Shown piece after piece: positions 17,570 through 46,362 of a DNA stretch of 64,000 nt (position 1 is the first letter of the stretch; every line of letters begins with the position of its first letter). The stretch lies in assembly GCF_053078305.1 (NCBI RefSeq), contig NZ_CP166879.1; one strand, 5' to 3'. Position numbers and translations under genes: made by a program. The notes below the pieces were generated by a model. The model saw only the letters and a program-made list of their open reading frames with translations. It did not search any database and had not been told where the DNA came from.

Positions 17570-17595
17570 CCGGAACAGTAACGGAGGTTATCGCG

Positions 17596-18266: not shown

Positions 18267-18290
18267 GCACAACCGCGCCAGCGGTTTTTT
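18267..18290 (+). terminator. Rho-independent terminator inside early region
   Basis: Hairpin accgcgccagcggt followed by TTTTTTT. Confidence 0.55.
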
Positions 18291-18470
18291 TGTGCGTACT
18301 GTATCGCCACGTCTTTTTCGCGTCAGAATTATGGCGGGGCGTACGGGGCCGACTTCGGTCGGGCCGGGGTCTTGTGTAGCCGGTTGTGGTAACCCTGTAC
18401 GTCTCGCCACCCTGAGATTACCGCCTCGGGTTGGTGAGTTTTCACAACTTACTACACAAGGGGCCACACC

Positions 18471-18698
18471 ATGGCAAACCGCAAACAACAGCGCGTCCGC
18501 GCTGAGCGTCTTCACATCCGCACCGAAATCAACCGCAGACTCTGGCGCGCATCACGCGTCGCGCAAATCATGTACATCAACATGCTGCATGAACACGCAC
18601 ACGCGCTGTCAGACCGTTACTGTGCCGCCGTCTTCAGCTACCTGGCGGATGACCTGGCAGAGCTGCAGGACCTTATCAACCAGCAACACCACCACTAA
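18471..18698 (+). CDS. Hypothetical small protein
   Basis: 75 aa; ATG with aagggg RBS; preferred over overlapping low-complexity ORF 18151..18780. Confidence 0.4.
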   Translation: MANRKQQRVRAERLHIRTEINRRLWRASRVAQIMYINMLHEHAHALSDRYCAAVFSYLADDLAELQDLINQQHHH

Positions 18699-18766
18699 AC
18701 AACATCCTGAAGCCATCCCGCACCCGTGCGCGGGAGGCTTCCGCACGTCTGTTACCGGAGGTTCTC

Positions 18767-19189
18767 ATGAAGAACGTTAAGGGACTTTCAGATATTCAGG
18801 ATTTTTTTAACTGGATGTGGGCAGTGGATCCCCGGCTGGCTTCCCGCCTGAACGACTGGCACGACTATTACCGCCGCGCCTGTAAACAGGCCGCCAGACG
18901 CGTCACCACATACGGGGATTTCTCCTTCACCGTTGACGGCAGTTACCGCGTGGACGTGAAAGGCGATGGTGATGGTTTTGGTTTTGGTTTATTTCACATC
19001 AACGGAACCGACAGCACCGCCATCAGCTGGTCGTCGTCAGAGATGACGCTTGTTCTGGAAATGACAAACCACAGCGTGGCCGTGAAAGGTATATACACCG
19101 CAGAAGACTTTATCGGTGAATACCAGCGCCTTCTCGTGCTGTACCGGGCAGCGTTTCAGGCGGCAACTGCCGGGGAGTGCGACGCATGA
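18767..19189 (+). CDS. Hypothetical protein preceding replication gene
   Basis: 140-aa ORF; stop overlaps start of the replication gene. Confidence 0.4.
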   Translation: MKNVKGLSDIQDFFNWMWAVDPRLASRLNDWHDYYRRACKQAARRVTTYGDFSFTVDGSYRVDVKGDGDGFGFGLFHINGTDSTAISWSSSEMTLVLEMTNHSVAVKGIYTAEDFIGEYQRLLVLYRAAFQAATAGECDA

Positions 19190-21705: not shown

Positions 21706-22106
21706 CCCGCTTTTATTGCGCCATGCAGCGCCAGCGTTTTGACGAAATGATGCGCCAGCGCACGCCCTTACTGACCCTGAACAACATTGCCACGGGGCCA
21801 CAACCGGGCGATGAGCTGGAAATCACGGTCGTCAGTCCCGATCGCACCACCACGGCCATCATCACCGACATACTCAACGGACGACCGGACAGCACCAACC
21901 GCAGCTGGCTTGTCGCCGTTCGTCCGCGCCGTCCGCCCGGAGAGCCGGAGCCGCTCACGCCTGCCGGAAAAATCATGCGGCAGTACCACGAAGAGCAGGA
22001 ACACAAACACAACGCAGAACTGACCAGAACACTGGCATCGATTAACCGCAAAGCGGCAATTGCCCGCTATGTGCATTCAGCCGCAGGCAGACAATCACGC
22101 AGGTAA
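21702..22106 (+). CDS. Hypothetical protein, translationally coupled to replication gene
   Basis: 134 aa; ATGA overlap with gpA-like stop. Confidence 0.4.
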   Translation: MTRFYCAMQRQRFDEMMRQRTPLLTLNNIATGPQPGDELEITVVSPDRTTTAIITDILNGRPDSTNRSWLVAVRPRRPPGEPEPLTPAGKIMRQYHEEQEHKHNAELTRTLASINRKAAIARYVHSAAGRQSRR

Positions 22107-22115
22107 ACAAAGACC

Positions 22116-22325
22116 ATGAACATAACCAGAAACAGCCAACTAAAGGAGCGCACCATGAACAGCACCAGGAGGATCAGCGACAGAGAGCTTACGAAAATGA
22201 TTGAGTCGGCACAGCAGCTGCTTTCACGACAAAACCCGGTCGTGGAAGAAACATGGTGGGAGAATTTACTGGCAGCACTGACCGAACTCCGGGAACGCCG
22301 GAACAACGAAGGAGCCGCCAAATGA
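22116..22325 (+). CDS. Hypothetical small protein
   Basis: 69-aa ORF; start may be internal (MNSTRRISDREL). Confidence 0.3.
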   Translation: MNITRNSQLKERTMNSTRRISDRELTKMIESAQQLLSRQNPVVEETWWENLLAALTELRERRNNEGAAK

Positions 22326-22648
22326 AGACCCCAGGAATGACCGGAAAGGAAATCATTTTACGCTACCTGGAAACGCACACACGTTTCAGCGCCCCAGAAC
22401 TGGTAGAAAAACTGGGCGTGAAAAGAACCGTCATTAATCAGGCCGCCGGGAAAATGGTACGGGAAGGCCTGCTGGTTGTGGATGGATACACGGACAAGAT
22501 AACGCATTACCGGAAGCCAACGGAAAAGGAACGACAGGAACTGGCGCAACGGGCTGAACGGCAGCAGGAAAAATCAGTCATCGAAGCCTGCAAGCGCAGC
22601 GAAATCATGAAGCGAATTCTGTTTATCTACGGCGCTGCATTCCGTTAA
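22322..22648 (+). CDS. Putative winged-helix DNA-binding protein
   Basis: 108 aa from MKTPGMTGKEIILRYLETHTRFSAPELVEKLGVKRTVINQAAGKMVREGLLVV; ATGA overlap with preceding ORF. Confidence 0.4.
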   Translation: MKTPGMTGKEIILRYLETHTRFSAPELVEKLGVKRTVINQAAGKMVREGLLVVDGYTDKITHYRKPTEKERQELAQRAERQQEKSVIEACKRSEIMKRILFIYGAAFR

Positions 22649-22656
22649 AGGAGCTG

Positions 22657-22680
22657 GTGAGTCGGGGCAAAAATTCTTTT
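22657..22680. terminator. Bidirectional terminator between convergent genes
   Basis: Hairpin ggggcaaaaattctttttgcccc. Confidence 0.5.
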
Positions 22681-22713
22681 TGCCCCGGCGAAGCAGCAGA
22701 CAAGCGAAGCGCG

Positions 22714-22977
22714 TCAGGAACGCCGCGACAGTAGTTCAAGCGCATACCGGCGATCTTCCGGGCGCATGGCATCAACAAGAAACTTCACCATATTGCGACC
22801 GGAGCGGGCGCCGGGGCTGAGGGTATGGGAAAAGGTCATCGTACAGACGAAGGTGTGCCCGCATTCGACATCACTGCATGCACAGTACAGATCCGCAAGT
22901 TCAGGGGTTTTCCAGTCTGTCTTCCGGATGACAGCAGGTGCGCCACAGTCAGGACACCGGGCTTTAAAAATCCGCAT
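22714..22977 (-). CDS. Ogr/Delta-family zinc-finger late-gene transcription activator
   Basis: From MRIFKARCPDCGAPAV...YCACSDVECGHTF: CPxC...CxxxxxCxxTF pattern of P2 Ogr; GGGAGG RBS 7 nt upstream of ATG. Confidence 0.7.
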   Translation of the reverse strand: MRIFKARCPDCGAPAVIRKTDWKTPELADLYCACSDVECGHTFVCTMTFSHTLSPGARSGRNMVKFLVDAMRPEDRRYALELLSRRS

Positions 22978-23014
22978 CTTACCTCCCGATAACACGTATC
23001 CCGGGGAAGACATT

Positions 23015-24088
23015 TTACCCGACCGGCACCACTTTTTCTTCCGCCACATGCCCGGCTTCCACATCAAAACGAAGATAAAGGTGTTCCGGTATATCGGGAT
23101 CGCTGTTCACGGCGTTCATGATTTTACGCTGAAGCGGTATCACCTCATCCTTGCGGTACGTTTCACGCGTCGTTTCCGGGTTAGGGATGGTGGCCCCGTT
23201 CGTGGGGATGATCCCCGCAAGACCGGCAGGAAAGCGGTGTGCCGTAAACACATCCTGGGCGCTGATCCCCTTGATGTTTGAAAATTCATCCTTGGCGCTC
23301 ACCTCACCAATCGGAATAATTTTCACCCCATCCGGCGAACCTTTGGGGATGTTGATGTACAGATTGCGGAAATTTCCCAGCCCCTTAGACTCCGCCACCT
23401 TCTCGCGGATCTCATCCTCCATCTCCGTGGTGATCCCAGGGTCGTTCGTATACAGCAAAAAGCCCATATGCGCCCCGTTGTTGTAGTAACGGCGACGAAA
23501 AAGGCTGGCCTCGCTGTTCAGCAGCGCCGAGTGAATGCCACCGATATAATCCGGCAGCCCGTAAATTTGCTGACGCGGATCATACATCCGCAGAAAGATA
23601 ATATCTTCCGGCGTATAGACCAGCGCGGGACCTTCCTGAAGCACCACGAACTCACCGGTTTTGCGGCGCCGGAGATACAGCGACGGAAGCGGCTCAAGTG
23701 CCACGACGTCGCCGAATACGTTACGCACCTTGAGCAGGGCGAGATCGCCGAACAACAGGTAGTCAAATACCGCCTGTTCCATCTGGTCCGTTGTGAGGCC
23801 ACCACCGGTATAGCCCCCCGCCACCATGTTACGGCGGGCATACAGCACCCCACCGTGCTGGGCGTTAAGGTTCGGGAGCTGCGCCAGTGCCAGGCGGTTA
23901 ATCGGCAGCTGCCAGTGGTTGTGTTCGTTGTCATACCAGATGTTATGGTAGTCCGTGCCGGTGGTCAGCACCGGTTCCGGCTGACCAAACGTGATTGTGC
24001 TGCCACGTGCGGGCGTGAATGCTTTTTTCGTCACGCGTGACGTTTTGTTTCTGCGTTTCTTGCTCATGCGGCTTTCCCGAAGGCCCAT
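23015..24088 (-). CDS. Portal (capsid vertex) protein, P2 gpQ-like
   Basis: 357 aa; size and position upstream of terminase ATPase on same strand as in P2 Q-P; family assignment by recall. Confidence 0.6.
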   Translation of the reverse strand: MGLRESRMSKKRRNKTSRVTKKAFTPARGSTITFGQPEPVLTTGTDYHNIWYDNEHNHWQLPINRLALAQLPNLNAQHGGVLYARRNMVAGGYTGGGLTTDQMEQAVFDYLLFGDLALLKVRNVFGDVVALEPLPSLYLRRRKTGEFVVLQEGPALVYTPEDIIFLRMYDPRQQIYGLPDYIGGIHSALLNSEASLFRRRYYNNGAHMGFLLYTNDPGITTEMEDEIREKVAESKGLGNFRNLYINIPKGSPDGVKIIPIGEVSAKDEFSNIKGISAQDVFTAHRFPAGLAGIIPTNGATIPNPETTRETYRKDEVIPLQRKIMNAVNSDPDIPEHLYLRFDVEAGHVAEEKVVPVG

Positions 24089-25890
24089 GTGGACGGGCGT
24101 TCATAGTCATAATCTACAGGCTCATTAATCACGGCGTGCGAAATGGCAAAAAACACATCCGCATGCCCCGTAACATCCGACCGTTCCGCCACGAACGTCA
24201 GCGCGTTACCGCTTTTTGTGGTGGTGCGGCGTATGGACATGAACGACGCGGGGATCTCCGTGCGTTCACGGCTGGCCTCATCAATGGCGTCTTTCGCCCA
24301 CTCGATACGCTTATGGGCCACCACGTCTATCATTTTCATCACCAGGCGGTTTTTGCTCTCCACGCTGTAAAGAATGGCGTTAGCCTCACGTGGCGCAAAG
24401 CGACTGACGATATCAAACACCCCTTTCCCGATACCGGTGATATCTATGCCGATATAGGTAATGTTAAAGCGCTGCATCAGTTCGCGGATCTGATCGGCCT
24501 GCCAGGTGAAGTTAAATCCCTGCCACTGCCAGACGGCGAGTACACGGAACCGCTCGCCCTCATGGACAGGCGGAGCCACAATCACAAACGTGGAATTATC
24601 CCCGGACCTTGACGGGTCAAAGCCCGCCCATACCTCACGATTGCCGAACGGACGTGCCGCCGTGGGATCGTAGTCACCCCACGTCTCCATCTCCACCTCG
24701 CACCTGACCAGTTCGGAGAACTTAAATACCGCATCCTTGCTGTCAACAAACTCGCAGCCGTACAGCATCGCATAGGTGGTCGGGTTGTAGCGGTTCCTGA
24801 TACGTTCAATATCAACCCGTGCAGACAGGCCACCCGCCACCGCCTCTTCCAGCCGGATAATGTAGCGCCAGATCCCGTCAGGGCATTCACAGCCCACACG
24901 CATCGCGCTTTCTTTCGGAAACTCAACCGCACGACGCGCCGGGTCATCCCCGCGCCAGTCGTCACCATTCCAGACCAGATAAGCCTGGTGGGTTTTGGCG
25001 CTGGGTGTGGAAAAATACGTCGTGCGGTATTTGTCGTGGGTCGCCATTGCCGAGGCCACTTCATGCAGTCGCGTGAATTTTGGGATCCAGAACACCTCAT
25101 CGCCGTAAAGGTGGCCGTTAAATCCCTGGGCGGTGCTGACATTGGTGGACAGGAAGCGCAGCATTGCACCATTGCTCAGACGGATATGCTTACCCGTGAG
25201 CGTGATCCCAAACTGCAGGGCGAAGTTAATAATATATTCACGAAAGATTTCCGCCTGTACCCGTGACGCAGAAAAGAAAATCTGGTTATCACCGGTCACC
25301 ACCGCATCTTCGAACGCTTCCCATGCAAAATACCAGGTCATGCCGATCTGGCGGCTCTTGAGGATGAAACGGCGCTCACGGTGCCGGTTCTCGCGGCAGT
25401 GCAGCTGGTAGGCATAAAGATTTTTACGCGCCCATTCATCCAGCATTTCAGCAGTCAGTCCGGAAACGTCGTTTTTCCGGTAGCGCCGCTTTTTCCCTTC
25501 TCCCCCGCCGCAGGTCCCCGCAGCCGCGCCGTCCTCATACCCTGCCGGACGCAGGGCGGCAATTTCCGCCATCCTTTCAGCGTGTTTGTTTTTCTGGGCG
25601 ATGATCTTCACGTGCTGCGCGATAAGTTCACGCAGTTCGGCAAGTTCACACTCTGTCTTGCCCTCCCGTCCGGTCAGCACATCAATACGCCGGGCGATCA
25701 CGTCCTCAACGGATTCAGCGGGCAGCAGGGCGGCCCACTGCCCCACATCACACCAGTGGTAAACCGTGCGCGGCGGAATACCGAGTTCCGCCGCAATATC
25801 GCGGGGGTGCCACCGCTTCAGGTAAAGCGATCGCGCCGCCTCTTTGATTTCGTCAGAATATTTAGCCATGCGCCCATTATGGCGGCGCAT
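24064..25890 (-). CDS. Terminase large (ATPase) subunit, P2 gpP-like
   Basis: 608-aa ORF; N-terminal HTH-like segment (RDIAAELGIPPRTVYHWC); divergent from scaffold/capsid genes as in P2; true start may be MAKYSDEIK. Confidence 0.65.
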   Translation of the reverse strand: MRRHNGRMAKYSDEIKEAARSLYLKRWHPRDIAAELGIPPRTVYHWCDVGQWAALLPAESVEDVIARRIDVLTGREGKTECELAELRELIAQHVKIIAQKNKHAERMAEIAALRPAGYEDGAAAGTCGGGEGKKRRYRKNDVSGLTAEMLDEWARKNLYAYQLHCRENRHRERRFILKSRQIGMTWYFAWEAFEDAVVTGDNQIFFSASRVQAEIFREYIINFALQFGITLTGKHIRLSNGAMLRFLSTNVSTAQGFNGHLYGDEVFWIPKFTRLHEVASAMATHDKYRTTYFSTPSAKTHQAYLVWNGDDWRGDDPARRAVEFPKESAMRVGCECPDGIWRYIIRLEEAVAGGLSARVDIERIRNRYNPTTYAMLYGCEFVDSKDAVFKFSELVRCEVEMETWGDYDPTAARPFGNREVWAGFDPSRSGDNSTFVIVAPPVHEGERFRVLAVWQWQGFNFTWQADQIRELMQRFNITYIGIDITGIGKGVFDIVSRFAPREANAILYSVESKNRLVMKMIDVVAHKRIEWAKDAIDEASRERTEIPASFMSIRRTTTKSGNALTFVAERSDVTGHADVFFAISHAVINEPVDYDYERPSTWAFGKAA

Positions 25891-26035
25891 CCGGCCCGCA
25901 TTCAGGCAGAAAATTTCGGCTGTGTTCGGCTATCCCGCGTTATCCGAAGACAGCCGAATTCAGCCAGTAGCCCCCCGCTGTAAAAATCCCGACACTCACC
26001 GGAGTTCTTCAGATTTTCACGTAAAAGAGGCCACG

Positions 26036-27085
26036 ATGCCGCAGCCAACGTTGATGACCGACTGGATATGTATCGCCACATCAGGACCGACCGTTGACGG
26101 CCGCGAAATTGATCCGCAGTGGCTGACTGATGCCGCTGAAACCTATTCCCGCAACACCTACACGGCGATGCTGTGGCCCTGGCATGAGGAAGAAATCGGA
26201 CACCGCCAGTACACCAGTAATCTGGGTGAAGTGGACTCACTGAAAGCGGAAACCGGCGAGGACGGTAAAACCCGCCTCTACGCACGGCTGGTCCCTAACC
26301 AGTACCTGATTGAAGCCAACAGACTGGGGCAGAAGCTGTTCACATCCGCCGAGATAGTGGAGAACTTCGCCCGGAGCGGACGCGACTATCTCCTGGGCGT
26401 GGCGGTGACGGATATCCCCGCCAGTCTGGGGACGGAAAAAATCCGCTTCACCCTGAACAACGAGGAATACACGGCACAGCGGGCGAACTGCCAGACGTTC
26501 ACGCTGGGCAGCCTGTCACCGGACACCTCCCCGCCCCCCCGTAAACCTGAATCATTCCTGAAACGCCTGTTCAGCGCAGGACAGACCGACAACACCGACA
26601 CCAGTAAGCCTGATACAGGCGAGGACGCAAAAATGGACGAAATTAAAGCACTGCTTGAAAAGCTGATCACCCTGGTGGAAGGCGGCAGCGCCGCTGCCGC
26701 TGGCGAGGGCACAGCAGACACACCGGAAGAAGCAAAAGCCGAAGTCGCGGAAATCGCCGCCGAAATCGCCGATGCCGCCGCAGAGGTGGCAGAACTGGCA
26801 GAAGAAGTGGAAGCCGCCCCGGAAGATGAGGTTAAGGCTGAAGCCTTCAGCGCCGCGAAAGCGAAGCTGGAAGACGCGATTAAAGCGTTCAGTGCCATCA
26901 CACCGGAAAAAGGCGAACGTTACCGCCGCTTTGCCGCCCGTCGCCGGGACGACACCGACAAAGAAGAAATCAAAGCTATTGCCGAAAAACTTAACGACCT
27001 GACCACGAAGCTGTCAGCAACCGGCATCACGCCACGACCGGCTGGCACACCGGCAGAAAGCGAAAAACCGTTTGACTTTGTTTAA
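26036..27085 (+). CDS. Capsid scaffolding protein, P2 gpO-like
   Basis: From MPQPTLMTDW with aaagagg RBS; YLLGVAVTDIPASLGTE matches P2 gpO YLVGLAVTDDPASLGTE by recall; Ala/Glu-rich C-terminus; track ORF 25844..27085 is an upstream extension. Confidence 0.7.
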   Translation: MPQPTLMTDWICIATSGPTVDGREIDPQWLTDAAETYSRNTYTAMLWPWHEEEIGHRQYTSNLGEVDSLKAETGEDGKTRLYARLVPNQYLIEANRLGQKLFTSAEIVENFARSGRDYLLGVAVTDIPASLGTEKIRFTLNNEEYTAQRANCQTFTLGSLSPDTSPPPRKPESFLKRLFSAGQTDNTDTSKPDTGEDAKMDEIKALLEKLITLVEGGSAAAAGEGTADTPEEAKAEVAEIAAEIADAAAEVAELAEEVEAAPEDEVKAEAFSAAKAKLEDAIKAFSAITPEKGERYRRFAARRRDDTDKEEIKAIAEKLNDLTTKLSATGITPRPAGTPAESEKPFDFV

Positions 27086-27096
27086 GGACACGCAAC

Positions 27097-28125
27097 ATGC
27101 AACTGAACCAGAAAACCGAATCACTGCTTCGTAAGTACGCTGCCGGACTGGGCGCGGCAAACGGGGTTGACGACGTCACACGCTATTTTGCGCTGTCTGA
27201 CCCGAAGGAGACCGCGCTGCGTGACGCCATCATGCACTCCGACGAGTTTTTATCAAAACTGCCGAACGTGCTGGATGTTGAACAGGTGACAGGCCAGGTG
27301 GTTACCACCGGCGTTCCGGGCCTCCATACCGGACGTAAAAAAAATGCCCGTTTCACCCTTCCGCTGGGTGTTACCGGGAATGAATACAAGCTGGCTGAAA
27401 CCGATTCCGGTGCCCACCTCCTGTACACCACACTGGTCACCTGGGCAAACGCAGGCGGTGAAAACGAGTTCTTTAACCGCATTCAGAATTTTGTTAACAG
27501 ACAGATCGCGCTGGATATCCTGCGCATCGCCTTTAACGGTACCAGCGTGGCCGAAGATACCGACCCGGTAACCAACAAAAACGGCGAGGACGTCAACACC
27601 GGCTGGCATGCCATCGTCAAAGGCCGCAGCGCAAAACAGATCGTGGAGGCTGGCCCGACGCTGGGCAAGGGTGGCGACTTTATCGGGCTGGATGCAGCCG
27701 TGGCAGACCTCGTGCACACCCTCATTGATGAGTCGTATCGCGGTCATCCGGATCTGGTGGTACTGGTTGCGCCCGATCTTGTGGCACAGGACAAGGTGAC
27801 GCTGCTTAACGCCATCGACGCCCCCACGGAAAAAGTGGCCGCGCAGCTTATCGGTCGCCAGATCGCCGGGCTGACAGCATACACCCCGCCGTTCATGCCG
27901 GAAGGACGCCTGATTGTCACCACGCTGGCAAACCTTCACATCTACACGCAGCGCGGCACCCGTCAGCGCCGTGCGGAGTGGAACGACGATCGCAAGCGTT
28001 TTGAAAACAACTATCTGCGCATGGAAGGTTACGCCGTGGAGCACGACGAAATTTACGCGGCCTACGACAAGCTGACCATCAAGGGCGCAGAAGCGGCAGA
28101 AGAGCCCGCATCTGGCGGCGCATAA
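27097..28125 (+). CDS. Major capsid protein, P2 gpN-like
   Basis: 342 aa; GKGGDFIGLDAAVADL and HPDLVVLVAPDLVAQDK resemble P2 gpN segments by recall. Confidence 0.7.
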   Translation: MQLNQKTESLLRKYAAGLGAANGVDDVTRYFALSDPKETALRDAIMHSDEFLSKLPNVLDVEQVTGQVVTTGVPGLHTGRKKNARFTLPLGVTGNEYKLAETDSGAHLLYTTLVTWANAGGENEFFNRIQNFVNRQIALDILRIAFNGTSVAEDTDPVTNKNGEDVNTGWHAIVKGRSAKQIVEAGPTLGKGGDFIGLDAAVADLVHTLIDESYRGHPDLVVLVAPDLVAQDKVTLLNAIDAPTEKVAAQLIGRQIAGLTAYTPPFMPEGRLIVTTLANLHIYTQRGTRQRRAEWNDDRKRFENNYLRMEGYAVEHDEIYAAYDKLTIKGAEAAEEPASGGA

Positions 28126-28142
28126 GCACAGAGGGCGGCGCA

Positions 28143-28841
28143 ATGACACCCTGCCAGCGACACCGGGCGAAAATCCGCACACAGGAGGCACTCGAACGCC
28201 GGGAGGCGCTGACGGCCTCCCCGGTCAGCTTCCACCTGTTACGCGCGGAGCTTGATCGCGATGTGGCACGGCTGCGCAGTCTTCCGGTCCGTGAAGAGCG
28301 GCTGGCGTTCAAGCGCGACATTCTCCTGCCGCGCTGGCTGCCCGTCGCGGAGCGCTATATCGCTGACGGAAAGCGCCACGCCTGCCCGGTACTGGTGTAC
28401 TGCATCATCTGGCTGTTCGACACGGGCGACCTGAGTCGCGCCCTTGACTGGGCAGACATTGCCATCAGTGAAGGCCAGGCCACGCCGGACAACTTCCGCA
28501 GCACCCTGCCCGCCTTCGTGGCAGACACGGTGCTGCAGTGGGCCACCGACAACAGCGAGGCCGGACACAGCATAGAACCGTATTTTTCGCGCACCTTCAG
28601 GAACGTCACCACCTCGTGGCGGCTGCATGAGGAAATCCGCGCGAAGTGGTTCAGATTTGCCGGGCTGTATCTTCTGCGCGACGAGGCGGGCAAACCGAGA
28701 GCCACCGCGATTAATGATACTGCCGTACTGGAAAAGGCAGACGCATACCTGGCACAGGCGGCAGCACTGAGCCGTACCGCTGGCGTAAAAAGTATCAGGG
28801 CGCGCATCAGGGCACGCATCAGCGCCCTTAATGCAGCGTAA
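28143..28841 (+). CDS. Terminase small/endonuclease subunit, P2 gpM-like
   Basis: 232-aa ORF in the P2 M position after capsid gene. Confidence 0.5.
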   Translation: MTPCQRHRAKIRTQEALERREALTASPVSFHLLRAELDRDVARLRSLPVREERLAFKRDILLPRWLPVAERYIADGKRHACPVLVYCIIWLFDTGDLSRALDWADIAISEGQATPDNFRSTLPAFVADTVLQWATDNSEAGHSIEPYFSRTFRNVTTSWRLHEEIRAKWFRFAGLYLLRDEAGKPRATAINDTAVLEKADAYLAQAAALSRTAGVKSIRARIRARISALNAA

Positions 28842-28948
28842 ACGACTACCCGCAGGGCCGGGCGGGCGCGGGAGGAGGCATCAGTGACGGAAACTGTATG
28901 GCCGTGGAATCCCGGACAGCCCGCCTTTTTATTCATATGAGGCACGTC

Positions 28949-29422
28949 ATGAGCGAACCGAGCTTCAGCGTCAGCGGTAAACCGCTGAAATCCACACCGC
29001 AGACGGTGACAAACGGCGAGCCGTTCTGGCCGGACCTTAATCTGGCTGAGCTTCAGGGGTCACGCACGCTTCCGGCTGATTTACCCGACGACACGGCGGC
29101 CATGGCGCTACTTGCCGCAGTGGCCGAGGTAAACACCACGCTGGCGCCGGTTGTGGCGCACTGGAAGGCGCAGGGGCATGAACGCGCCGCAGACGTACCG
29201 GGGGCCAGGCTGGGCGATGAAACCCAGCTGGTCGCACAGTACAAAAAGGCCGTTTATGCCCGTGCCAAGGCCGATCTTATGGGCGAGTTCGCCACCATTG
29301 GTCGCCGTGAAACCTATCCGGGGCAGGAAAGCGAGGACACACGCGCCACCTTACTGGCTGAAGCCTCGCTGGTCATGCGTAACATGCTGGGGCACAGACG
29401 CGCGGGAGTGCACATTATATGA
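28949..29422 (+). CDS. Head completion/stabilisation protein, P2 gpL-like
   Basis: 157 aa from MSEPSFSVSGKPLK; position after M as in P2. Confidence 0.45.
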   Translation: MSEPSFSVSGKPLKSTPQTVTNGEPFWPDLNLAELQGSRTLPADLPDDTAAMALLAAVAEVNTTLAPVVAHWKAQGHERAADVPGARLGDETQLVAQYKKAVYARAKADLMGEFATIGRRETYPGQESEDTRATLLAEASLVMRNMLGHRRAGVHII

Positions 29423-29892
29423 ACCAGCTGGAAAGCCTGACCGCCTTCATTACCGAAAATCTGCCGCCTGACGCCATGCAGTTCTTCATGAGCAGTCAGG
29501 AAGACGCGCAGCTTATCCGCAGTCAGAAGGCGCTGGGTAACGACCAGATCCGCATGGGCGTGATGACGTACACCGGCGTGATTGCATGGGATAACTTCCC
29601 GTTCCGCAAATACTCACCGGGGCTGGTTTACGCGCTGGTCATGGCCTGGCTGGAAGAGCACGCGGACCCGCTGAGGGAGGAATTCCGCCCGGAGGATGTG
29701 AACGTCGACCCGCAGTTTAACGATGAGGACTCGTGCCTTCTCGATATCACGGTGGGACTGGCTGACCCGCTGATCATCCGGGTTCAGGAAGACGGCCCCG
29801 TTCCGTACAGGGGGAAACGCTGGACACTGGTTAACCCTGAAATCTGGACGGCGGAAACCATGGATCTGTTTGTCAGCAGGAGCCGCGAATGA
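29419..29892 (+). CDS. Tail completion protein (P2 gpR-like)
   Basis: 157 aa; overlapping start/stop with neighbours; assignment by position and size. Confidence 0.4.
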   Translation: MNQLESLTAFITENLPPDAMQFFMSSQEDAQLIRSQKALGNDQIRMGVMTYTGVIAWDNFPFRKYSPGLVYALVMAWLEEHADPLREEFRPEDVNVDPQFNDEDSCLLDITVGLADPLIIRVQEDGPVPYRGKRWTLVNPEIWTAETMDLFVSRSRE

Positions 29893-30599
29893 TAAGCGGC
29901 CAGCTGAACCCGCAGCAGCTGGCAGAAGCACAGGCGATGCTTCAGTCGCTGGATCTGCCCCCGAAAAAACGCCGTCGCCTGTTATGGCGTATTGCCCGGC
30001 ACGGCATTATCGCCGCTGCCAGACGCCATCAGCGCGATCAGGCCGCACCGGACGGTACAGCATGGGCACCCCGGAAACGCGGTAAGGGGAAAATGTTCAG
30101 AAAGCTGCCGCGTCTTCTGGCGGTCCGTGAGATGCCCGGACAGGATGCCGTAAAGGTTTATTTCCGTAACGGCAATCACACCAGTGGCAGGAGCCGCATC
30201 AGTGCCGGTGCCGTGGGCTGGGTTCACCACAACGGCGCAGAAATCCGGGTCAGTGCTGACAGCTTCAGCGGTCAGGACCAGAACGGGCAGACCGCCACCC
30301 GCCGACAGGCAAAACGACTGCGGGAGCTGGGCTTTAAGGTACGCCAGAAGGGGCGCTGGCGGAAAGCATCCATGAAATACCTGTTAACGCTTTCGCGGGC
30401 GCAGGCCGGGTTGCTGATCACCATTATGGAAGATCAGATTATCGCCGGACCACGCCAGCAGAAGGCCCGGACATGGACCATTACCCTTCCGTCGCGCGTC
30501 TTTCTGGGGGTAACAAACGAAGAATTTTCACACATCCTGGCACGCCAGATGAACGCAATGGGCTACGGCCTGGACGTTGACGCACAGGATATCAGATAA
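29889..30599 (+). CDS. Phage virion morphogenesis / tail completion protein (P2 gpS / Mu G family-like)
   Basis: 236 aa; position after R-like gene. Confidence 0.4.
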   Translation: MISGQLNPQQLAEAQAMLQSLDLPPKKRRRLLWRIARHGIIAAARRHQRDQAAPDGTAWAPRKRGKGKMFRKLPRLLAVREMPGQDAVKVYFRNGNHTSGRSRISAGAVGWVHHNGAEIRVSADSFSGQDQNGQTATRRQAKRLRELGFKVRQKGRWRKASMKYLLTLSRAQAGLLITIMEDQIIAGPRQQKARTWTITLPSRVFLGVTNEEFSHILARQMNAMGYGLDVDAQDIR

Positions 30600-30610
30600 G
30601 GAGTCACACC

Positions 30611-31756
30611 GTGAGCTGGCCGAATGTAACCGTAAGCCATCAGAACCGTTTCAACGGTGCCACCCGTGAAGTGGAGCGCACGCTGCTTTTTGTGGGCTAT
30701 GGCAAAAAGAACACAGGTAACACCCTTTCCGTCTCCCCTGAGACCGACCTGGACGACGTGCTGGGACCGGATGAAAGCCTGCTTAAATCCACGCTTACCG
30801 CCGCAATCGCCAACGGTGGCCAGAACTGGTTTGCCTATGTTCACGTTCTGTCTGAACCCAAACCCCCGGCACCGGAGGGTGGCGACGCTAACGCCGCATG
30901 GGTGGACGCGGTGAAAAAAGCGCAGACCATTGCTTCTGCCGAGGGCGTGGTGATTGCCATTGACATCACGGCCAAAGATGCCGTTAACCGCGCCACCGAA
31001 ACCCGCGCCCTGCTTCAGTCCGCTTATGGCCGCTTTGTCTGGTTCATGCTGTGCGTGGCCGGACCGGGCAAGGATGAAGCATGGGCGGCATACGTCACCC
31101 GCATCAGTGCCATACAGGACGGCGTGGCAGCACCTGGCGTGATGGTGGTTCCCCGCTTATGGGGAAATGAGCCCGGCGTACTGGCGGGCCGTCTCTGTAA
31201 TCCTTCCGTCACCGTTGCGGACAGTCCGGCACGTGTGGCAACCGGTGCCCTGGTGGCGATGGGTAACGATGAGATCCCGCAGGACGGCAAGAAACAGCCC
31301 CTTGAGCTGGCCACGCTGCGCTCGCTGGAAGGCAAACGCTTCAGCGTGCCCATGTGGTATCACGATTTCGACGGGCTCTACTGGTCAGACGGACGCACCC
31401 TTGATGTGGAGGGGGGCGATTACCAGGTCATCGAAAACGTGCGCGTGGTGGATAAGGTCTCCCGCCGTGTACGTCTGCGCGCCATTGCCCGCCTTGCGGA
31501 TCGCGCACTCAACAGCACACCGGGCAGCATTGCCGCCAGCCAGACATATTTCAGCCGCACGCTGCGTGAAATGGCGCTCGCCACGGAGATTAACGGCGTA
31601 CCGTTCCCCGGCGAGGTTAAACCGCCACAGGACGGGGATATCACCATCGTCTGGACCAGCAGTACACACGTGCAGATTTACATTGTGGTACGCCCCTACG
31701 AGAGCGCAAAAGCCATTGGCGTAAGTATTGAACTCGACACAGCACTGGAGATCTGA
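30611..31756 (+). CDS. Putative tail sheath protein
   Basis: 381 aa, immediately before a ~150-aa tube-sized gene; assignment by size and order only. Confidence 0.35.
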   Translation: MSWPNVTVSHQNRFNGATREVERTLLFVGYGKKNTGNTLSVSPETDLDDVLGPDESLLKSTLTAAIANGGQNWFAYVHVLSEPKPPAPEGGDANAAWVDAVKKAQTIASAEGVVIAIDITAKDAVNRATETRALLQSAYGRFVWFMLCVAGPGKDEAWAAYVTRISAIQDGVAAPGVMVVPRLWGNEPGVLAGRLCNPSVTVADSPARVATGALVAMGNDEIPQDGKKQPLELATLRSLEGKRFSVPMWYHDFDGLYWSDGRTLDVEGGDYQVIENVRVVDKVSRRVRLRAIARLADRALNSTPGSIAASQTYFSRTLREMALATEINGVPFPGEVKPPQDGDITIVWTSSTHVQIYIVVRPYESAKAIGVSIELDTALEI

Positions 31757-31757
31757 C

Positions 31758-32219
31758 ATGGCCGGAAATGAACGTATCAGCGGCGGCGCGTTTGATATCA
31801 ACTACGACGGGATCATGATCCACGTGGAAAGCGCCACCGTCACCATCACCGACAACAGCGCCGTGGCACAGACGCGCGGCGTGCCGAACGGCTACACCCG
31901 TGGTTCTGTTTCTGCCGATGTGGAGGTGGAAGTCGACGCGCAGAACTTTAAAAAGTTTGGTGCCGTGGCCCGCTCTGCGGGGTCGTGGCGTGCCATTCCT
32001 GAAAAGGATTTTCTCTTTTATGCCAACAACGGCAGCGAGGAGGAAAAAATCGAGGTGTTCGGCTGCGTCCCCATGTTGTCGGACGTGGTGAACATCAGCG
32101 CAGGTGAAGCCGGAAAGACCACGAAAAAAATCAAGTTCATGGTCACAAGCCCGGACTTTATCAGCATTGACGGCGTGCCCTACCTGTCAGCCCGTGACAC
32201 CCGCGATCTGAAGGGGTGA
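31758..32219 (+). CDS. Putative tail tube protein
   Basis: 153 aa from MAGNERISGGAFD; position after sheath candidate. Confidence 0.35.
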   Translation: MAGNERISGGAFDINYDGIMIHVESATVTITDNSAVAQTRGVPNGYTRGSVSADVEVEVDAQNFKKFGAVARSAGSWRAIPEKDFLFYANNGSEEEKIEVFGCVPMLSDVVNISAGEAGKTTKKIKFMVTSPDFISIDGVPYLSARDTRDLKG

Positions 32220-32223
32220 TGCC

Positions 32224-42209: not shown

Positions 42210-42723
42210 TGGTGAGGGTATTTTCATGCAGAACATGGTGATTTCGCCCTCGATGCAGTTCCAGGAAAAGGACCAGTCCGGTCAGACATCGAGCACCGCG
42301 AACGCCGAGCAGGGCATCAAGGCCAAAGAGCTTCGCGTAACCGGGATGATCACCTTTGACAATGAGCGGGCCCTTCAGCGCATTTTCCAGCTGGCCTCTG
42401 CCACCACCGGGGACGGTGCCCTGAAAGTTTACCGTATCGCAAACGCCACCGCTGCCGCCATTAACTTTCGTGAAGGGACATTTTCCGGGCAGATAGACGC
42501 ACAGCAGCAGACCGACCGCCTCGCCTGGCAGGTCAGCTTCACATTACGCGAAAGACGAAGCGTACCGGAAAAACGCCAGGCACGCGCCGCACCCGGCAGC
42601 AGCCGTAAACAGACGCCGCAGACGCCCGGCGCAAAAGGCGGGACCGTGGCCGACGAAACACCGGAGAAAATGACCTGGTTCGAAGAAAAGGTCCTCAAAC
42701 CCGTCAATGATGCGCTGGAGTAA
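42181..42723 (+). CDS. Hypothetical tail-region protein (start uncertain)
   Basis: 180-aa ORF overlapping upstream gene; alternative start MQNMVISPS. Confidence 0.3.
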   Translation: MSQTALLALDGEGIFMQNMVISPSMQFQEKDQSGQTSSTANAEQGIKAKELRVTGMITFDNERALQRIFQLASATTGDGALKVYRIANATAAAINFREGTFSGQIDAQQQTDRLAWQVSFTLRERRSVPEKRQARAAPGSSRKQTPQTPGAKGGTVADETPEKMTWFEEKVLKPVNDALE

Positions 42724-42725
42724 CC

Positions 42726-44399
42726 ATGAACCCCACTAAACGTCTGTTACTGGGTAACGACACCATTCAGCTGGTCAGCTGTTCCGTCATGCTTGAGCTG
42801 AACGCGTGCGGACGCGGATTTATCACGGCCAGAACGGAGCAGAACTACACCGGGCGCCCTGTTCGTCTCGATATCGGATACGGAAACGACCTGGTGCGCT
42901 GGTTTACCGGATACGTTGAACGCAGCCAGCCCGCTGAAAACGGCTCGGTGCGGCTTCTGATTCGTGAAATGGCGGGGATCCTTGATCACCCCTTCCCCTG
43001 TTCATTTCAGCACCCGACAATGCGCACGGTCACACAGTGGCTGAGTGAGACCAGCGGGCTGGAAATCATCCTGCCGGACAACGCGGCTTACACTGACAGA
43101 CCCGTTCCGCATTTCACGCACAGCGGCACGGGCTACGAACTGCTGGCCAGTCTGGGGCGTATTTTCTCCGTACCGGACTACATCTGGCATCCGTTACCGG
43201 ACGGCGGCATTATGGCCGCTGCCGCCGCGCAGGGGATGTTTTCCGGTCGCCCCGTCACCATCCCGCACGAGTTCAGCCAGGCATCAACGGGCGGACACAG
43301 TATGACCCTCCCGATGATTCAGACGCTGCGACCGGGTGTGGAGGTGAACGGTCAGCGCCTGACGATGGTCATGCTGGAAGATGACAACATGACCATCACG
43401 TGGACACCACGCAATAAAGCCACCGGCGCCCCCCTCCAGAAGTCCCCTTTCCGTCGCCAGGCTGAAAAGGCCTTCCCTGAACTGGCATCAGGGCTTCACC
43501 TGCCCAAACTGGCACGTGTTGAGGCGCCGACCGAAGCCGTCAGCGCGGGCAATATTGCCGACCCGTTCAGACCCCGCTACGCGGTGAATCTCCAGCTGCT
43601 TGACGAGAACGGCAACCCGGCAGCGGATACGCCCGTTTATAACGCCGTTCCCCTCCCCGTTCCTATGGCGGGCAGTGAGTCCGGCATGTTCCAGTTCCCG
43701 CCCCCCGGAACCCTGGTGGAAGTGGGATTTGTGGAAGGCCGGGCGGATAAGCCCTTCATCCGCCAGATAATGGCAGAGGGCCACAATCTGCCCGACGTGA
43801 AGCCGGGCGAGCAGTTGCAGCAACAGCGCGACGGCGTATCGCAGCGCGTGACGGTCGCCGGAGACTGGGAGCGCCAGACAGACCAGCGGATACAGGAGAC
43901 ATCACGCGAGCGCGTGGTGAGCGCAGACGAGGAGACGCGGAGCCTGACCAGCCGGGAGACCACCATACAGGCAACCGACACAACCACCGTCCTGGGCGTA
44001 TCCACGCTTCAGGCTGGCGCAGTCACCCATATCACTGAAGAGAACTACAGCATCAGCACGGGCGGGCACATGATGGTGGTTGCCGGTACCTGTGAGCGCG
44101 ACGTGGAAGGCGACACACTGGACACCGTGGGCGGCAGCCTTACCGAAAAGATTAAGGGCGTCCGTCACAGTATTGCGCAGGCGCAGAAGCTGGTTGGCGA
44201 TACGGTGAAGCTGGGAAACGAGGGCATTAATGTACTGACCATGCTGACGGACCTTGCCGATGTGGTGGAAGAGCTGGCCGATATTACGGCATCACATACC
44301 CACCCCAAAACGGGCACGTCTCCGCAGGCCGCACAGTTCAGCCAGGTCGCTCAGGAGTGCCGCCAGCTTAAAAATAAATATTCACCAATAATCGAATAA
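42726..44399 (+). CDS. Putative baseplate hub / central spike protein
   Basis: 557 aa; C-terminal region with histidine motif ITASHTHP resembling iron-binding spike tips (P2 gpV-type); last gene before non-coding right arm. Confidence 0.35.
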   Translation: MNPTKRLLLGNDTIQLVSCSVMLELNACGRGFITARTEQNYTGRPVRLDIGYGNDLVRWFTGYVERSQPAENGSVRLLIREMAGILDHPFPCSFQHPTMRTVTQWLSETSGLEIILPDNAAYTDRPVPHFTHSGTGYELLASLGRIFSVPDYIWHPLPDGGIMAAAAAQGMFSGRPVTIPHEFSQASTGGHSMTLPMIQTLRPGVEVNGQRLTMVMLEDDNMTITWTPRNKATGAPLQKSPFRRQAEKAFPELASGLHLPKLARVEAPTEAVSAGNIADPFRPRYAVNLQLLDENGNPAADTPVYNAVPLPVPMAGSESGMFQFPPPGTLVEVGFVEGRADKPFIRQIMAEGHNLPDVKPGEQLQQQRDGVSQRVTVAGDWERQTDQRIQETSRERVVSADEETRSLTSRETTIQATDTTTVLGVSTLQAGAVTHITEENYSISTGGHMMVVAGTCERDVEGDTLDTVGGSLTEKIKGVRHSIAQAQKLVGDTVKLGNEGINVLTMLTDLADVVEELADITASHTHPKTGTSPQAAQFSQVAQECRQLKNKYSPIIE

Positions 44400-44411
44400 T
44401 TATTCACTTTA

Positions 44412-44440
44412 ACAGGCCGCGCAATGTGGCCTTTTTTATT
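44412..44440 (+). terminator. Rho-independent terminator after last tail gene
   Basis: Hairpin ggccgcgcaatgtggcc followed by TTTTTT. Confidence 0.55.
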
Positions 44441-44459
44441 CCCGGACAATAAAAAATAT

Positions 44460-45100
44460 TCATCACCGGACATCACCCACCACGAAAAAACCGTCCGCAG
44501 CAGAAAAAAAGATGGACGAAACGCCCCACGTAATCCCCACGTAAAACGTCGCGTAACGCCACGTAACGAAGAGATAACCCCGCCAGCCCGATTCGATCCC
44601 CTGACATCAGAAAACGATTTCTGCGCCCCAAAATCGCCGCAAATGGCCGGAAATTTTCGGGGGCGACGTAACGCGTAAAGTGACGTAATCGGCGCTACCC
44701 CGCACACGCCTCCGGTATTTGTGTACGATAAATTTTGCAAATCGAAAGGGGTGCAAAACACCCCTCCAGGGCGCGCCATTACTGAGTTTTTCCCTTCTGA
44801 ATGGTTTTGCACTTTGTGCAAGGTTTTGCAAAAGTGTGCAAAAACTCCGGCTTTCTGAGGATCCCGAAAAATTTTAATGCACTGAATAACAAGAGATTTT
44901 TAAAATTACGTCACGATCGAAGATCTGAAAAAGGATCCGACGACGAAAACGAAAAAATCAGGAAAGCCAGAACTGGCGCGGTCTGGCGGGGAGTGGCAGC
45001 AAAAATCACTTTTGCACACTTTTGCACAACTGCTCCGAAAAAGGATGGCGAAGGGGAAGGAAAACAGCCACGTCATCCGTTGCACGTAACGGACGTAAAA
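44460..45100. repeat. Non-coding iteron array (ACGTAA-type and TTTTGCAC/GTGCAAAA-type short repeats)
   Basis: At least 10 copies of (c/g)acgtaa(c) at 44528-44690 and 45070-45100; direct/inverted ttttgca(c/a) copies at 44735-44850 and 45010-45030; no credible ORF. Confidence 0.6.
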
Positions 45101-45105
45101 GGTAA

Positions 45106-45463
45106 ATTACGCGCGGGTGCCTTTCGGCTGACGGCTGGAAGGAATACCTGAAGGCCGGATGTGAAAAGGCCCCGAGTCAACTAACGTTAACCCGAGGCCC
45201 TGACACTTCCTACCTGACAAGTGGAAGGTTAGCGCCTCCCTGTAAAAGGAGTCAAGCGCTATGCCGCAAAAAACGATCATAGTGAGCATTTTATGCATAA
45301 CTATTTTGATGATTGTCTGGATGATACACACGTCACCGTGTGAGTTCAGGCTTAACATCATGTGGTCACAATTTGCGGCGTTCTTGCAGTGTAAACAGTA
45401 AGAAACCGCAGCGGGGGTGAAAGCCCCCGCTATCCGGTTGCCGGGTTCGGTCGATATGGCACC
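45106..45463 (+). repeat. Copy 1 of ~360-bp duplicated module carrying a small hydrophobic-peptide gene (type I toxin-like locus)
   Basis: Near-identical to 45826..46186 (about 90% by eye); starts attacgcgcgggtgcctttcgg, ends at GC hairpin gcgggggtgaaagcccccgc. Confidence 0.7.
45261..45401 (+). CDS. 46-aa hydrophobic peptide, Hok/Gef-like candidate type I toxin (copy 1)
   Basis: MPQKTIIVSILCITILMIVWMIHTSPCEFRLNIMWSQFAAFLQCKQ; AGGAG RBS 8 nt upstream; single TM then Cys-containing tail, as in Hok family; highly structured leader. Confidence 0.45.
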   Translation: MPQKTIIVSILCITILMIVWMIHTSPCEFRLNIMWSQFAAFLQCKQ

Positions 45464-45516
45464 TTTTCTCCATTGGATTACAGACGTATTTGCCCGCGAC
45501 ATGCGGGCCTTTTTGT

Positions 45517-45720
45517 TCAGTTGTATTTATTGTGGTCGTTACTGGCAGTGGCATTAACTGATTTTGCATGAATAGCACAAATTTTTTCCACGATAACACC
45601 ACACGCTTCAAGGTCTTCCGGGCGTGAAACCTTTATTTTTGTAATAGTCTCAGGATTATCAGCCGTTCCACTTTGCACAACCTCAATTTCAATTTTTTTT
45701 CTTGAAAGAATCATTTTCAT
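45517..45720 (-). CDS. Hypothetical small protein (67 aa) between the two duplicated modules
   Basis: ATG-initiated ORF in AT-rich spacer; weak SD. Confidence 0.25.
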   Translation of the reverse strand: MKMILSRKKIEIEVVQSGTADNPETITKIKVSRPEDLEACGVIVEKICAIHAKSVNATASNDHNKYN

Positions 45721-45825
45721 CGCCCCGACACAGGACAGAGTAAGCCTGTGCGAAAGAATATCACCAGTGCGATAGCGTTGTCTGCTTCAACGCCAGGCAT
45801 TGCGCACACAAAGGGAAATCAGTAC

Positions 45826-46186
45826 ATTACACGCGGGTGCCTTTCGGCTGATGGCTGGAAGGATTACCTGAAGGCCGGATGTGGAAAGGCCCCGAGTCAA
45901 CTTTAATGTTAACCCGAGGCCCTGACCATCTACCCTAAGCAAGTGGAAGGTTAGCGCCTCCCTGTAAAAGGAGTCAAGCGCTATGCCGCAAAAAACGATC
46001 ATCGTGAGCATTTTATGCTTAACCATGTTGTTGACCGTCTGGATGATACACCGTTCTCCGTGTGAGTTCAGGCTTAACATCATGTGGTCAGAATTTGCGG
46101 CGTTCTTGCAGTGTAAACCGTAAGAAACCGCAGCGGGGGTGAAAGCCCCCGCTATCCGGTTGCCAAAGGTTCGGTCGAAAGTCGCA
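45826..46186 (+). repeat. Copy 2 of ~360-bp duplicated module (type I toxin-like locus)
   Basis: Direct repeat of 45106..45463 with scattered substitutions. Confidence 0.7.
45983..46123 (+). CDS. 46-aa hydrophobic peptide, Hok/Gef-like candidate type I toxin (copy 2)
   Basis: MPQKTIIVSILCLTMLLTVWMIHRSPCEFRLNIMWSEFAAFLQCKP; same RBS and frame as copy 1; differences are mostly conservative. Confidence 0.45.
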   Translation: MPQKTIIVSILCLTMLLTVWMIHRSPCEFRLNIMWSEFAAFLQCKP

Positions 46187-46206
46187 CCCTCACACAAAAG
46201 TCACAA

Positions 46207-46238
46207 AGAAAAACAAAGCCCGCAGCGTAAAAACTGCG
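46207..46238. terminator. Bidirectional rho-independent terminator (serS end / right-arm transcripts)
   Basis: Perfect hairpin aagcccgcag-cgtaaaaa-ctgcgggctt flanked by A-run and T-run. Confidence 0.65.
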
Positions 46239-46362
46239 GGCTTTTTTGTTTCAAAGATGGACGTTATCTGGACACATGAAAATAAAAAATCTTTATTTTC
46301 AATATGTTAACCACCCACTAAAACCACCCGCAGGCGCTTTTTAGATTCAGAAAAATTAGGTA

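Follow-up and report, generated by a model that had tools for sequence, protein, structure and literature searches.

The window considered here, a 64,000-nucleotide (nt) stretch of contig NZ_CP166879.1 (NCBI RefSeq assembly GCF_053078305.1), is a segment of an Escherichia coli chromosome and contains two similar repeats, at 45102-45475 (copy 1) and 45822-46197 (copy 2). With a probability that we place at roughly 0.85, both repeats are complete type I toxin-antitoxin (TA) modules of the Hok/Sok family, and as self-contained 'moron' cassettes they appear to occupy the right, att-proximal end of a prophage inserted in the serS terminator. This assignment is drawn from homology, family conservation and folding predictions, which concern in turn the encoded peptides, the structured mRNAs and a predicted antisense RNA over each leader.

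Each copy is approximately 375 bp long, the two are 93-94% identical, and their starts are 720-722 bp apart. A repeat search aligned 45102-45182 with 45822-45902 and 45218-45442 with 45940-46164 (94% identity in both cases), and the MAFFT alignment of the two copies has 93% column identity over about 390 columns. A third module copy was not found in the 64-kb window. An initial annotation of the window had described two tandem diverged copies; both are real, but they do not lie head to tail, as a 345-bp spacer separates them. The layout given in that annotation holds for both copies, with an AAGGAG ribosome-binding site (RBS) 9 nt before the ATG, a 46-codon open reading frame (ORF) and a GC hairpin past the stop codon. 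In addition, an intrinsic terminator lies 30-50 nt past the 3' complementary element of each copy, and upstream the homology of the copies reaches a conserved promoter, TTGCnC-17-TAnATT, so that the functional unit is about 440 bp with its own terminator included. The arrangement TTGCnn-17-TAnATT is found at a constant distance in most of 18 aligned homologues, though their upstream flanks are unrelated. The promoters were placed by this family conservation and by comparison with sokB and sokC.

Peptides and structured mRNAs

The comparison with protein families supports the membership of both peptides in the Hok/Gef toxin family, as initially annotated. Residues 9-44 match Pfam PF01848 (HOK_GEF; E=8.5e-5, 22.5 bits), the NCBIfam HokA equivalog model (NF007290) gives 35.9 and 37.9 bits and the Hok subfamily model 25-27 bits (E=1e-9 to 1e-5), and PHROG 251 ('MokW-like host killing') matches the two peptides with E=2e-18 and 5e-19. 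The RefSeq name of both genes is 'Hok/Gef family protein' in a strain whose tandem pair is 97.8% identical to that of the window. The copy 2 peptide is identical to WP_001135720.1, and the copy 1 peptide is near-identical to WP_001135716.1 (Hok/Gef family protein) in another strain. Both are also represented in a recent Hok catalogue (bioRxiv 10.1101/2025.08.07.668861, 2026 preprint), in which sequence 1307 is exactly the copy 2 peptide and sequence 1297 is the copy 1 peptide with one residue changed. When the family-logo positions (C16, T18, L30, C31, E32, E41) were compared, residues C12, T14, C27 and E28, as well as AAF, were found to be kept in both copies.

HokA, the best NCBIfam match, has the MPQK N-terminus, WMI, LCE and AAFLxCK in common with the window peptides, which are four residues shorter; tblastn identity is 43-45% to HokA (E=2e-8) and 30-34% to R1 Hok. 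Scores of 36-38 bits against an equivalog cut-off of 89 imply that the peptides are not HokA orthologues, and that assignment was rejected. Identity with HokW was likewise rejected, as HokW has 51 amino acids and a different leader (GCGGGTGCTTGAGGCTATCTGCC..., taken from primers).

The toxicity of the window peptides is predicted by analogy with a tested relative. Three of 45 tested Hok homologues were non-toxic, all of them unrelated to this family, and the tested representatives 82_1289, 72_1589 and 72_1621, the last two being relatives from cluster 72, are not among the three (bioRxiv 10.1101/2025.08.07.668861). Representative 82_1289, which also has SPCEF and was reported toxic, appears to share a 60% cluster with the window peptides, to judge from the alignment files of that source.

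The leaders of both copies match the sense-strand Rfam family sok (RF01794) in a permissive scan, with 49.5 bits (E=1e-9) and 35.8 bits (E=5e-6) and the whole 157-nt model covered. Minimum free energy (MFE) folds of the full-length mRNAs close both transcripts by 15-17 bp between the first 17 nt and a 3' element. In copy 1, GGGUGCC plus UCGGCUGA at the 5' end takes part in this pairing (z = -8.1 versus shuffles), and the corresponding segments pair in copy 2 (z = -6.6). The end pairing that the initial annotation had suspected, of the fbi/tac type, is thus borne out by the folds of both copies. The literal motif 'ggcacc' that it named for the 3' end is present in copy 1 only; copy 2 has 'tcgcaccc', which pairs one register over. 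End pairing is found in the full-length MFE folds of 20 out of 20 homologues, and covariation cannot confirm it because the paired bases hardly vary. In the same full-length folds, the GGAG of the RBS is paired to an upstream CUCC.

In order to mimic the 3' trimming of R1 hok mRNA (PMC1635323; PMC9841398), we truncated the sequences at the GC hairpin and folded them again. In the truncated fold the new partner of the 5' end is AAAGGCCCC, which lies about 50 nt downstream; GAGGC is freed and pairs with the former anti-Shine-Dalgarno segment to form a long hairpin. This switch of the 5' end to a local partner is predicted in 20 out of 20 family members. The predicted probability that the Shine-Dalgarno (SD) sequence is unpaired rises in copy 1 from 0.02 (full-length) to 0.18 (3'-truncated), and across the family from at most 0.02 to 0.00-0.36, both being thermodynamic predictions. 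The GC hairpin itself is likely a road-block for 3' trimming, by analogy with R1 hok mRNA (PMC1635323).

In neither copy, nor in 13 of 22 family modules, does an upstream ATG, GTG or TTG ORF reach the hok RBS or ATG, so a mok leader ORF was not found there. Sporadic upstream ORFs occur in other family modules, and their position and frame are not conserved. The same scan recovered mokB and mokC in K-12 as a control. Without a mok ORF, the predicted target of the structural switch is the RBS of hok itself. A literature search for hok systems that lack mok returned nothing relevant, and papers on the hok mRNA family that are open to subscribers only may mention the point.

Predicted Sok-like antisense RNAs and their variable tails

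The antisense RNA, which the initial annotation had left without a position, could be placed by homology to the annotated SokB and SokC, with its ends predicted. The minus strand of each copy reads TTGACT, 18 nt, TAACCT, 7 nt, a G, a tail of about 19 nt, a hairpin GGCCUCGGGUUAAC...GUUGACUCGGGGCC and then UUUUCACAUCC. These elements align one by one with K-12 sokC and sokB, with respect to promoter, +1, hairpin body and tail: in sokC and sokB the -35 is TTGACC or TTGCCG, the spacer is 17 nt, the -10 is followed after 6-7 nt by a G start, and the hairpin GGCCUCGG...CGGGGC is common to the modules. In copy 1 the Sok-like -35 overlaps the hok RBS. A 13-nt segment containing the -10, AGGTTAG[C/T]GCCTC, is essentially invariant in 18 of 18 aligned modules (one with T for C). 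In the hokW-sokW system of Stx2 prophage Sp5, primer sequences indicate that a TAACC -10 is the element mutated in the promoter-less sokW construct, in which antitoxin activity was abolished (PMC8621323).

In 18 of 18 homologues the folding energy of the Sok hairpin is between -23 and -36 kcal/mol, and in all of them the minus-strand form is favoured over the plus-strand form by 4-16 kcal/mol (-35.7 versus -19.3 kcal/mol in copy 1), since several of the hairpin's pairs are G-U. Such a bias is the expected signature if the minus-strand RNA is the functional one. RNAalifold, applied to 17 antisense sequences, detected no compensatory pairs in this hairpin, and the case for Sok therefore comes from the individual folds and the strand asymmetry and not from covariation; across homologues no base of the lower stem varies, and insertions and deletions set the upper stems apart. 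By homology, each module would encode in cis, over its leader, a roughly 60-nt antisense RNA served by a promoter and a terminator of its own.

The copies differ at 46 positions overall, with a less even spread than the initial description of scattered substitutions implies. Module positions 1-340 contain 33 differences, and 11 of these are concentrated in a 13-nt block at 45205-45217. Further differences lie in the Sok hairpin loop, in the transmembrane codons and at the 3' end, and the codon changes between the copies comprise seven non-synonymous and three synonymous ones. On the predicted Sok RNA, the block falls approximately at nucleotides 2-14, the single-stranded tail; for R1 Sok, first contact with the target loop is made by an 11-nt 5' tail (PMC1635323). 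Among 11 close homologues the mean pairwise difference is 0.50 in the block and 0.10 over the whole module, and the adjoining Sok promoter and RBS are nearly invariant. Small P values for the block are descriptive only, because it was chosen after the data had been inspected.

A similar picture is seen in strain N51. Two adjacent copies there specify one and the same peptide and agree over 250 nt, and the 16 internal differences between them all fall within the predicted Sok transcript, 11 of them in the variable block. In each of four arrays, neighbours carry different tails. The predicted duplexes between tail and target have energies of -37 to -40 kcal/mol for cognate pairs versus -9 to -24 kcal/mol for non-cognate pairs, and the Sok hairpin body (about 40 nt) is almost identical between copies. 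Together, the sequences and duplex energies suggest copy-specific recognition by the antitoxin. As a tentative extension, for which we claim somewhat less than even odds, the 46-residue branch may be a mok-independent variant of Hok/Sok in which the switch acts on the toxin's own RBS, the first 13-15 nt or so of Sok and the arm and loop of its target hairpin form a hypervariable cassette that differs between array neighbours, and each Sok neutralises its own hok mRNA alone.

Like R1 hok/sok, the window modules have a Hok-fold peptide and a predicted cis-antisense Sok that comprises a 5' tail and a hairpin; the ends of their mRNAs are predicted to pair in the manner of tac and fbi, a 3' road-block hairpin is present, a terminator comes past fbi, and refolding is predicted on 3' trimming (PMC9841398; PMC1635323). 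They differ in peptide length (52 amino acids in R1 versus 46 here) and in that R1 has mok and is plasmid-borne, whereas the window modules have no mok ORF and are prophage-borne. The Sp5 system hokW-sokW is also a prophage Hok/Sok and shares the antisense -10 TAACC; it is the only prophage hok with a tested role, in which Sok was lost on induction, HokW was made and phage release doubled (PMC8621323). It is a different locus, with a peptide of 51 residues. Phages of the Sp5 type carry the 46-residue family as a separate locus downstream of lom, with DNA 79% identical to copy 1.

Feature map, genomic setting and distribution

The features of both copies and of the surrounding prophage are collected in Table 1. 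The map combines matches, scans and folding, and transcripts and promoters in it are predicted.

Table 1 Features of the two Hok/Sok-like modules and of the prophage that carries them, in window coordinates
Feature	Position	Strand	Basis and remarks
Prophage, ~33 kb	13175..46319		Between dmsA and serS; alignment against empty K-12 serS-dmsA site, PHROG matches
att core CCCGCAGG, 8 nt	13167-13174 and 46327-46334		Both junctions; alignment to empty K-12 site
Integrase	13264-14271	minus	Left end of prophage
Copy 1 candidate hok promoter	45080..45108	plus	-35 TTGCAC 45080-45085, 17-nt spacer, -10 TAAATT 45103-45108; family conservation
Copy 1 full-length hok-like mRNA body (predicted)	45115..45466	plus	Rfam sok model start 45115; MFE fold
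Copy 1 tac-like 5' element	45115-45131	plus	MFE fold; pairs with fbi-like element
Copy 1 predicted Sok-like antisense RNA, ~61 nt	45158..45218	minus	5' tail, 16-bp hairpin, UUUU tail
Copy 1 hypervariable block	45204..45218		Predicted Sok 5' tail; also 5' arm and loop of hok mRNA target hairpin
Copy 1 Sok-like promoter	45226..45255	minus	-10 TAACCT, reverse complement of 45226-45231; -35 TTGACT, reverse complement of 45250-45255
Copy 1 Shine-Dalgarno AAGGAG	45246..45251	plus	Paired with upstream CUCC 45236-45239 in full-length fold
Copy 1 hok-family coding sequence, 46 amino acids	45261..45401	plus	MPQKTIIVSILCITILMIVWMIHTSPCEFRLNIMWSQFAAFLQCKQ
Copy 1 GC hairpin directly past stop	45409..45432	plus	Hairpin scan and fold
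Copy 1 fbi-like 3' element	45447-45464	plus	MFE fold; pairs with tac-like element
Copy 1 intrinsic terminator	45492..45518	plus	Past fold-back element; terminator scan
Spacer, 345 bp, AT-rich	45476..45821		Between copies
Spacer ORF, 67 amino acids	45517-45720	minus	Weak match to C-terminal part of phrog_14142
Copy 2 candidate hok promoter	45800..45828	plus	TTGCGC 45800-45805, 17-nt spacer, TACATT 45823-45828; family conservation
Copy 2 full-length hok-like mRNA body (predicted)	45835..46189	plus	Rfam sok match 45835-45994, 49.5 bits; folding
Copy 2 tac-like element	45835-45851	plus	Folding; pairs with fbi-like element
Copy 2 predicted Sok-like antisense RNA, ~63 nt	45878..45940	minus	Homology to sokB/sokC, hairpin fold
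Copy 2 Sok-like promoter, -10	45948-45953	minus	Reverse complement
Copy 2 Sok-like promoter, -35	45972-45977	minus	Reverse complement
Copy 2 Shine-Dalgarno	45968-45973	plus	
Copy 2 hok-family coding sequence, 46 amino acids	45983..46123	plus	MPQKTIIVSILCLTMLLTVWMIHRSPCEFRLNIMWSEFAAFLQCKP
Copy 2 GC hairpin past stop	46131..46154	plus	Hairpin scan
Copy 2 fbi-like element	46171-46189	plus	Folding; pairs with tac-like element
Copy 2 intrinsic terminator	46215..46250	plus	Hairpin CCCGCAGCGTAAAAACTGCGGG, common to most family members; terminator scan

The insertion point of the prophage, as judged from the alignment against the empty K-12 intergenic region, is the serS terminator, and the att core lies within the terminator hairpin. 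No exact repeat of 10 nt or more is shared by the two prophage junctions. On the right, serS (46363-47655, minus strand) is followed by rarA, lolA and ftsK; on the left, dmsA ends at 12964. According to PHROG matches, the prophage begins at its left end with the integrase and a repressor and continues with a P2-A-like replication nickase, terminase, tail sheath, tape measure, baseplate and tail fibre genes. The hok modules form its extreme right end, 130-1200 bp from attR. Duplication of the att site as the source of the repeat was rejected, as both copies lie inside the insert and about 130 bp or more from attR. The serS att site is used by at least two types of prophage, the present one and a P2-like type with D-ogr-hok at its right end.

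The copy 2 terminator hairpin (46215-46244) is kept as part of the cassette in most family members, the plasmid copy included. Its sequence resembles the att core and the serS terminator sequence (GCGCCCGCAGGCGC), which may be a coincidence. The 67-residue ORF of the spacer may be a gene fragment, given that its match to phrog_14142 is weak and confined to the C-terminal part. Between the last baseplate gene and hok copy 1, the non-coding segment 44733-45028 contains, in direct and inverted orientation, six of the seven exact matches to TTTTGCA(C/A)A in the 64-kb window. The cluster may be a protein-binding array; a RefSeq 'hypothetical protein' overlaps it. Elsewhere in the window, Rfam matches at gathering level lie at 13055-13189, 18217-18291, 18327-18414 and 61416-61443. 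They comprise STnc130 upstream of dmsA, isrK and C4 antisense RNA within the prophage, in a region of immunity/antirepressor type, and a single 28-nt CRISPR-DR4-like match adjoining the tRNA at 61225-61309.

Of 5426 complete E. coli genomes, 1749 contain the module family with most of its length covered, as do 198 phage records; the family counts 2854 places in the 5426 genomes. A unit of about 365 bp follows lom in Stx-converting phages and ogr in P2-like prophages, the latter at serS, ihfA and other sites; it also lies between tail genes and on a plasmid. Its boundaries are constant across these settings, which is the behaviour of a discrete cassette. Upstream of copy 1, the phage arm occurs in 11 genomes; the tandem pair is found in five or six other complete genomes, and the spacer is present in 6 of the 5426 genomes, in all of them with a match that covers most of the pair. 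A profile search of genome contigs with the peptide alignment returned six loci, some of them on obviously contaminated contigs of metagenome-assembled genomes. Three-copy hok arrays next to serS were found in E. coli N51 (locus L024, 1716-3100) and JNEC-KY174 (locus L025, 1717-3300); in these, peptides of the MPQKTII and MSQKSL types are mixed, and the modules repeat at intervals of about 473 bp and 723 bp. The hok copy number at the serS prophage end thus varies from one to three between strains. Two relatives are decayed: in E. coli NRZ14408 (locus L018, 401-755) the hok -10 region is lost, ATG has become ATA and the gene is unannotated, and in the Stx2a phage Stx2_EH2011 (locus L016, 401-759) an 8-nt deletion shifts the frame of codons 5-7.

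The published catalogue describes hok as enriched in prophages and hok islets as groups of 2-6 copies within 2 kb, which hold 10% of hok genes and 13.5% of those in Escherichia (bioRxiv 10.1101/2025.08.07.668861).

Alternative explanations, proposed mechanism and significance

The initial annotation took the pair for an old duplication and not an artefact, which is reasonable in view of the tandem pair in other complete genomes and the three-copy arrays in related strains. A competing account holds that recombination at the att-proximal arm placed two already-diverged hok cassettes of different phages next to each other. In P2-like prophages at serS, the single copy that follows ogr is matched by copy 2 together with its downstream arm, from the terminator to attR, and peptide WP_001135720.1 is found there too; moreover, the terminator of copy 1 differs from that of copy 2, the spacer is confined to this arrangement among the 5426 genomes, and the arrays of related strains mix two peptide types. 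The N51 neighbours point the other way, since identity over 250 nt except in the antisense region fits local duplication followed by diversification or patchy conversion, and 98% of hok islets hold a single 60% identity cluster, from which duplication was favoured (bioRxiv 10.1101/2025.08.07.668861). Local duplication and accretion by recombination are both possible, and we regard accretion as plausible without leaning to it.

Several observations weigh against the reading of the repeats as complete Hok/Sok modules. Both NCBIfam matches are far below the curated cut-offs, and both Rfam RF01794 scores are under the gathering score of 59, with a gathering-level scan of the whole window giving no hok/sok match. 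A strict sigma-70 consensus scan of both strands over 44700-46400 found no promoter. The RBS opening predicted on truncation is partial, and it is absent in a few homologues; the RNAalifold result given above belongs here as well. In the peptides, the consensus Leu before the conserved Cys (family L30) is Pro in both copies, and the conserved Glu (family E41) is kept in copy 2 and replaced by Gln in copy 1. Finally, the chromosomal hokA, hokB and hokC are reported to be unable to mediate post-segregational killing (cited in bioRxiv 10.1101/2025.08.07.668861).

Some of these points, namely the missing consensus promoter, the Pro residue and the chromosomal hok genes, together with the two decayed relatives that have lost the -10 and ATG or the frame, would also be expected if the modules were intact-looking but silent relics, with little or no transcription, that never kill and hitch-hike on the prophage. 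We consider this improbable. Both copies are intact, and both promoters, the RBS, the ORF, the end pairing, the road-block hairpin and the terminators are conserved across 18-22 homologues, with ORFs kept at 46 codons in distant contexts. As for the Pro residue, the tested representative with the SPCEF motif, apparently of the same cluster, is toxic; no single conserved residue is required for Hok toxicity, and replacement of the conserved Leu by Ala in R1 Hok did not abolish it (bioRxiv 10.1101/2025.08.07.668861). As explanations of the repeat, a non-TA repetitive element and an assembly artefact can both be dismissed: beyond the repetition itself nothing speaks for either, and the 46 differing positions, the occurrence of the arrangement in independent complete genomes and the protein and RNA family matches speak against them.

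On the reading as Hok/Sok modules, the sequence and predicted folds allow the following mechanism to be proposed. A weak constitutive promoter in each module would give a highly structured mRNA of about 350-400 nt for a 46-residue single-pass membrane toxin, and the opposite strand would give an unstable Sok-like antisense RNA, about 60 nt in length, whose sequence is the complement of the leader of that mRNA. The full-length mRNA would be inert, with its extreme 5' end paired to its 3' end and the hok RBS buried by the upstream CUCC. Slow 3' trimming to the GC hairpin would free the 5' end, which would then pair with AAAGGCCCC about 50 nt downstream; the released GAGGC would pair with the anti-SD segment, so that the long target hairpin forms and the RBS becomes partly exposed. 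The Sok-like RNA would catch this hairpin by its single-stranded 5' tail, and the duplex would be destroyed (by RNase III in the R1 and hokW systems). As long as the module is transcribed, no toxin would be made. If transcription stops, whether because the element is lost, the prophage is induced or an infecting phage shuts it off, Sok would decay first and toxin would be produced.

The biological pay-off may be one of several. The initial annotation had proposed post-segregational killing or stabilisation of the prophage, and prophage addiction or stabilisation is a possible role and the one that we would name first, at less than even odds. Help with lysis at induction, by analogy with hokW-sokW, is an unlikelier one, and exclusion of other phages and a selfish or neutral passenger status each seem somewhat more doubtful still.

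The family, its association with prophages, its toxicity and its tandem islets are already known from publications or annotation. The preprint catalogue covers the coding sequence only and sets aside Mok (described as hard to predict), Sok and mRNA structure (bioRxiv 10.1101/2025.08.07.668861), so that the absence of mok and the variable Sok tail are not described there. The architecture without mok and the hypervariable Sok tail are modest leads that are apparently less described. Ibs/Sib and Ldr/Rdl are likewise tandem paralogous toxin/antisense modules in which the antisense recognition segments differ by copy, with toxin families unrelated to Hok. Discrimination between copies has been shown experimentally for Sib/Ibs; for the window modules it is indicated by sequence and duplex energies.

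The locus belongs to one of the best-studied toxin-antitoxin families, and this branch is present in about a third of complete E. coli genomes. What is added here is an anatomical map of both copies, including both promoters, the Sok-like RNA, the end pairing, the road-block hairpin and the terminators. If each Sok indeed acts only on its own mRNA, this would explain how arrays of two to three near-identical modules are kept up without collapse. Two observations at the family level, the lack of mok and the clustering of variation in the predicted 5' tail of Sok, could be of use in planning experiments on how cross-talk is avoided in multi-copy type I systems.

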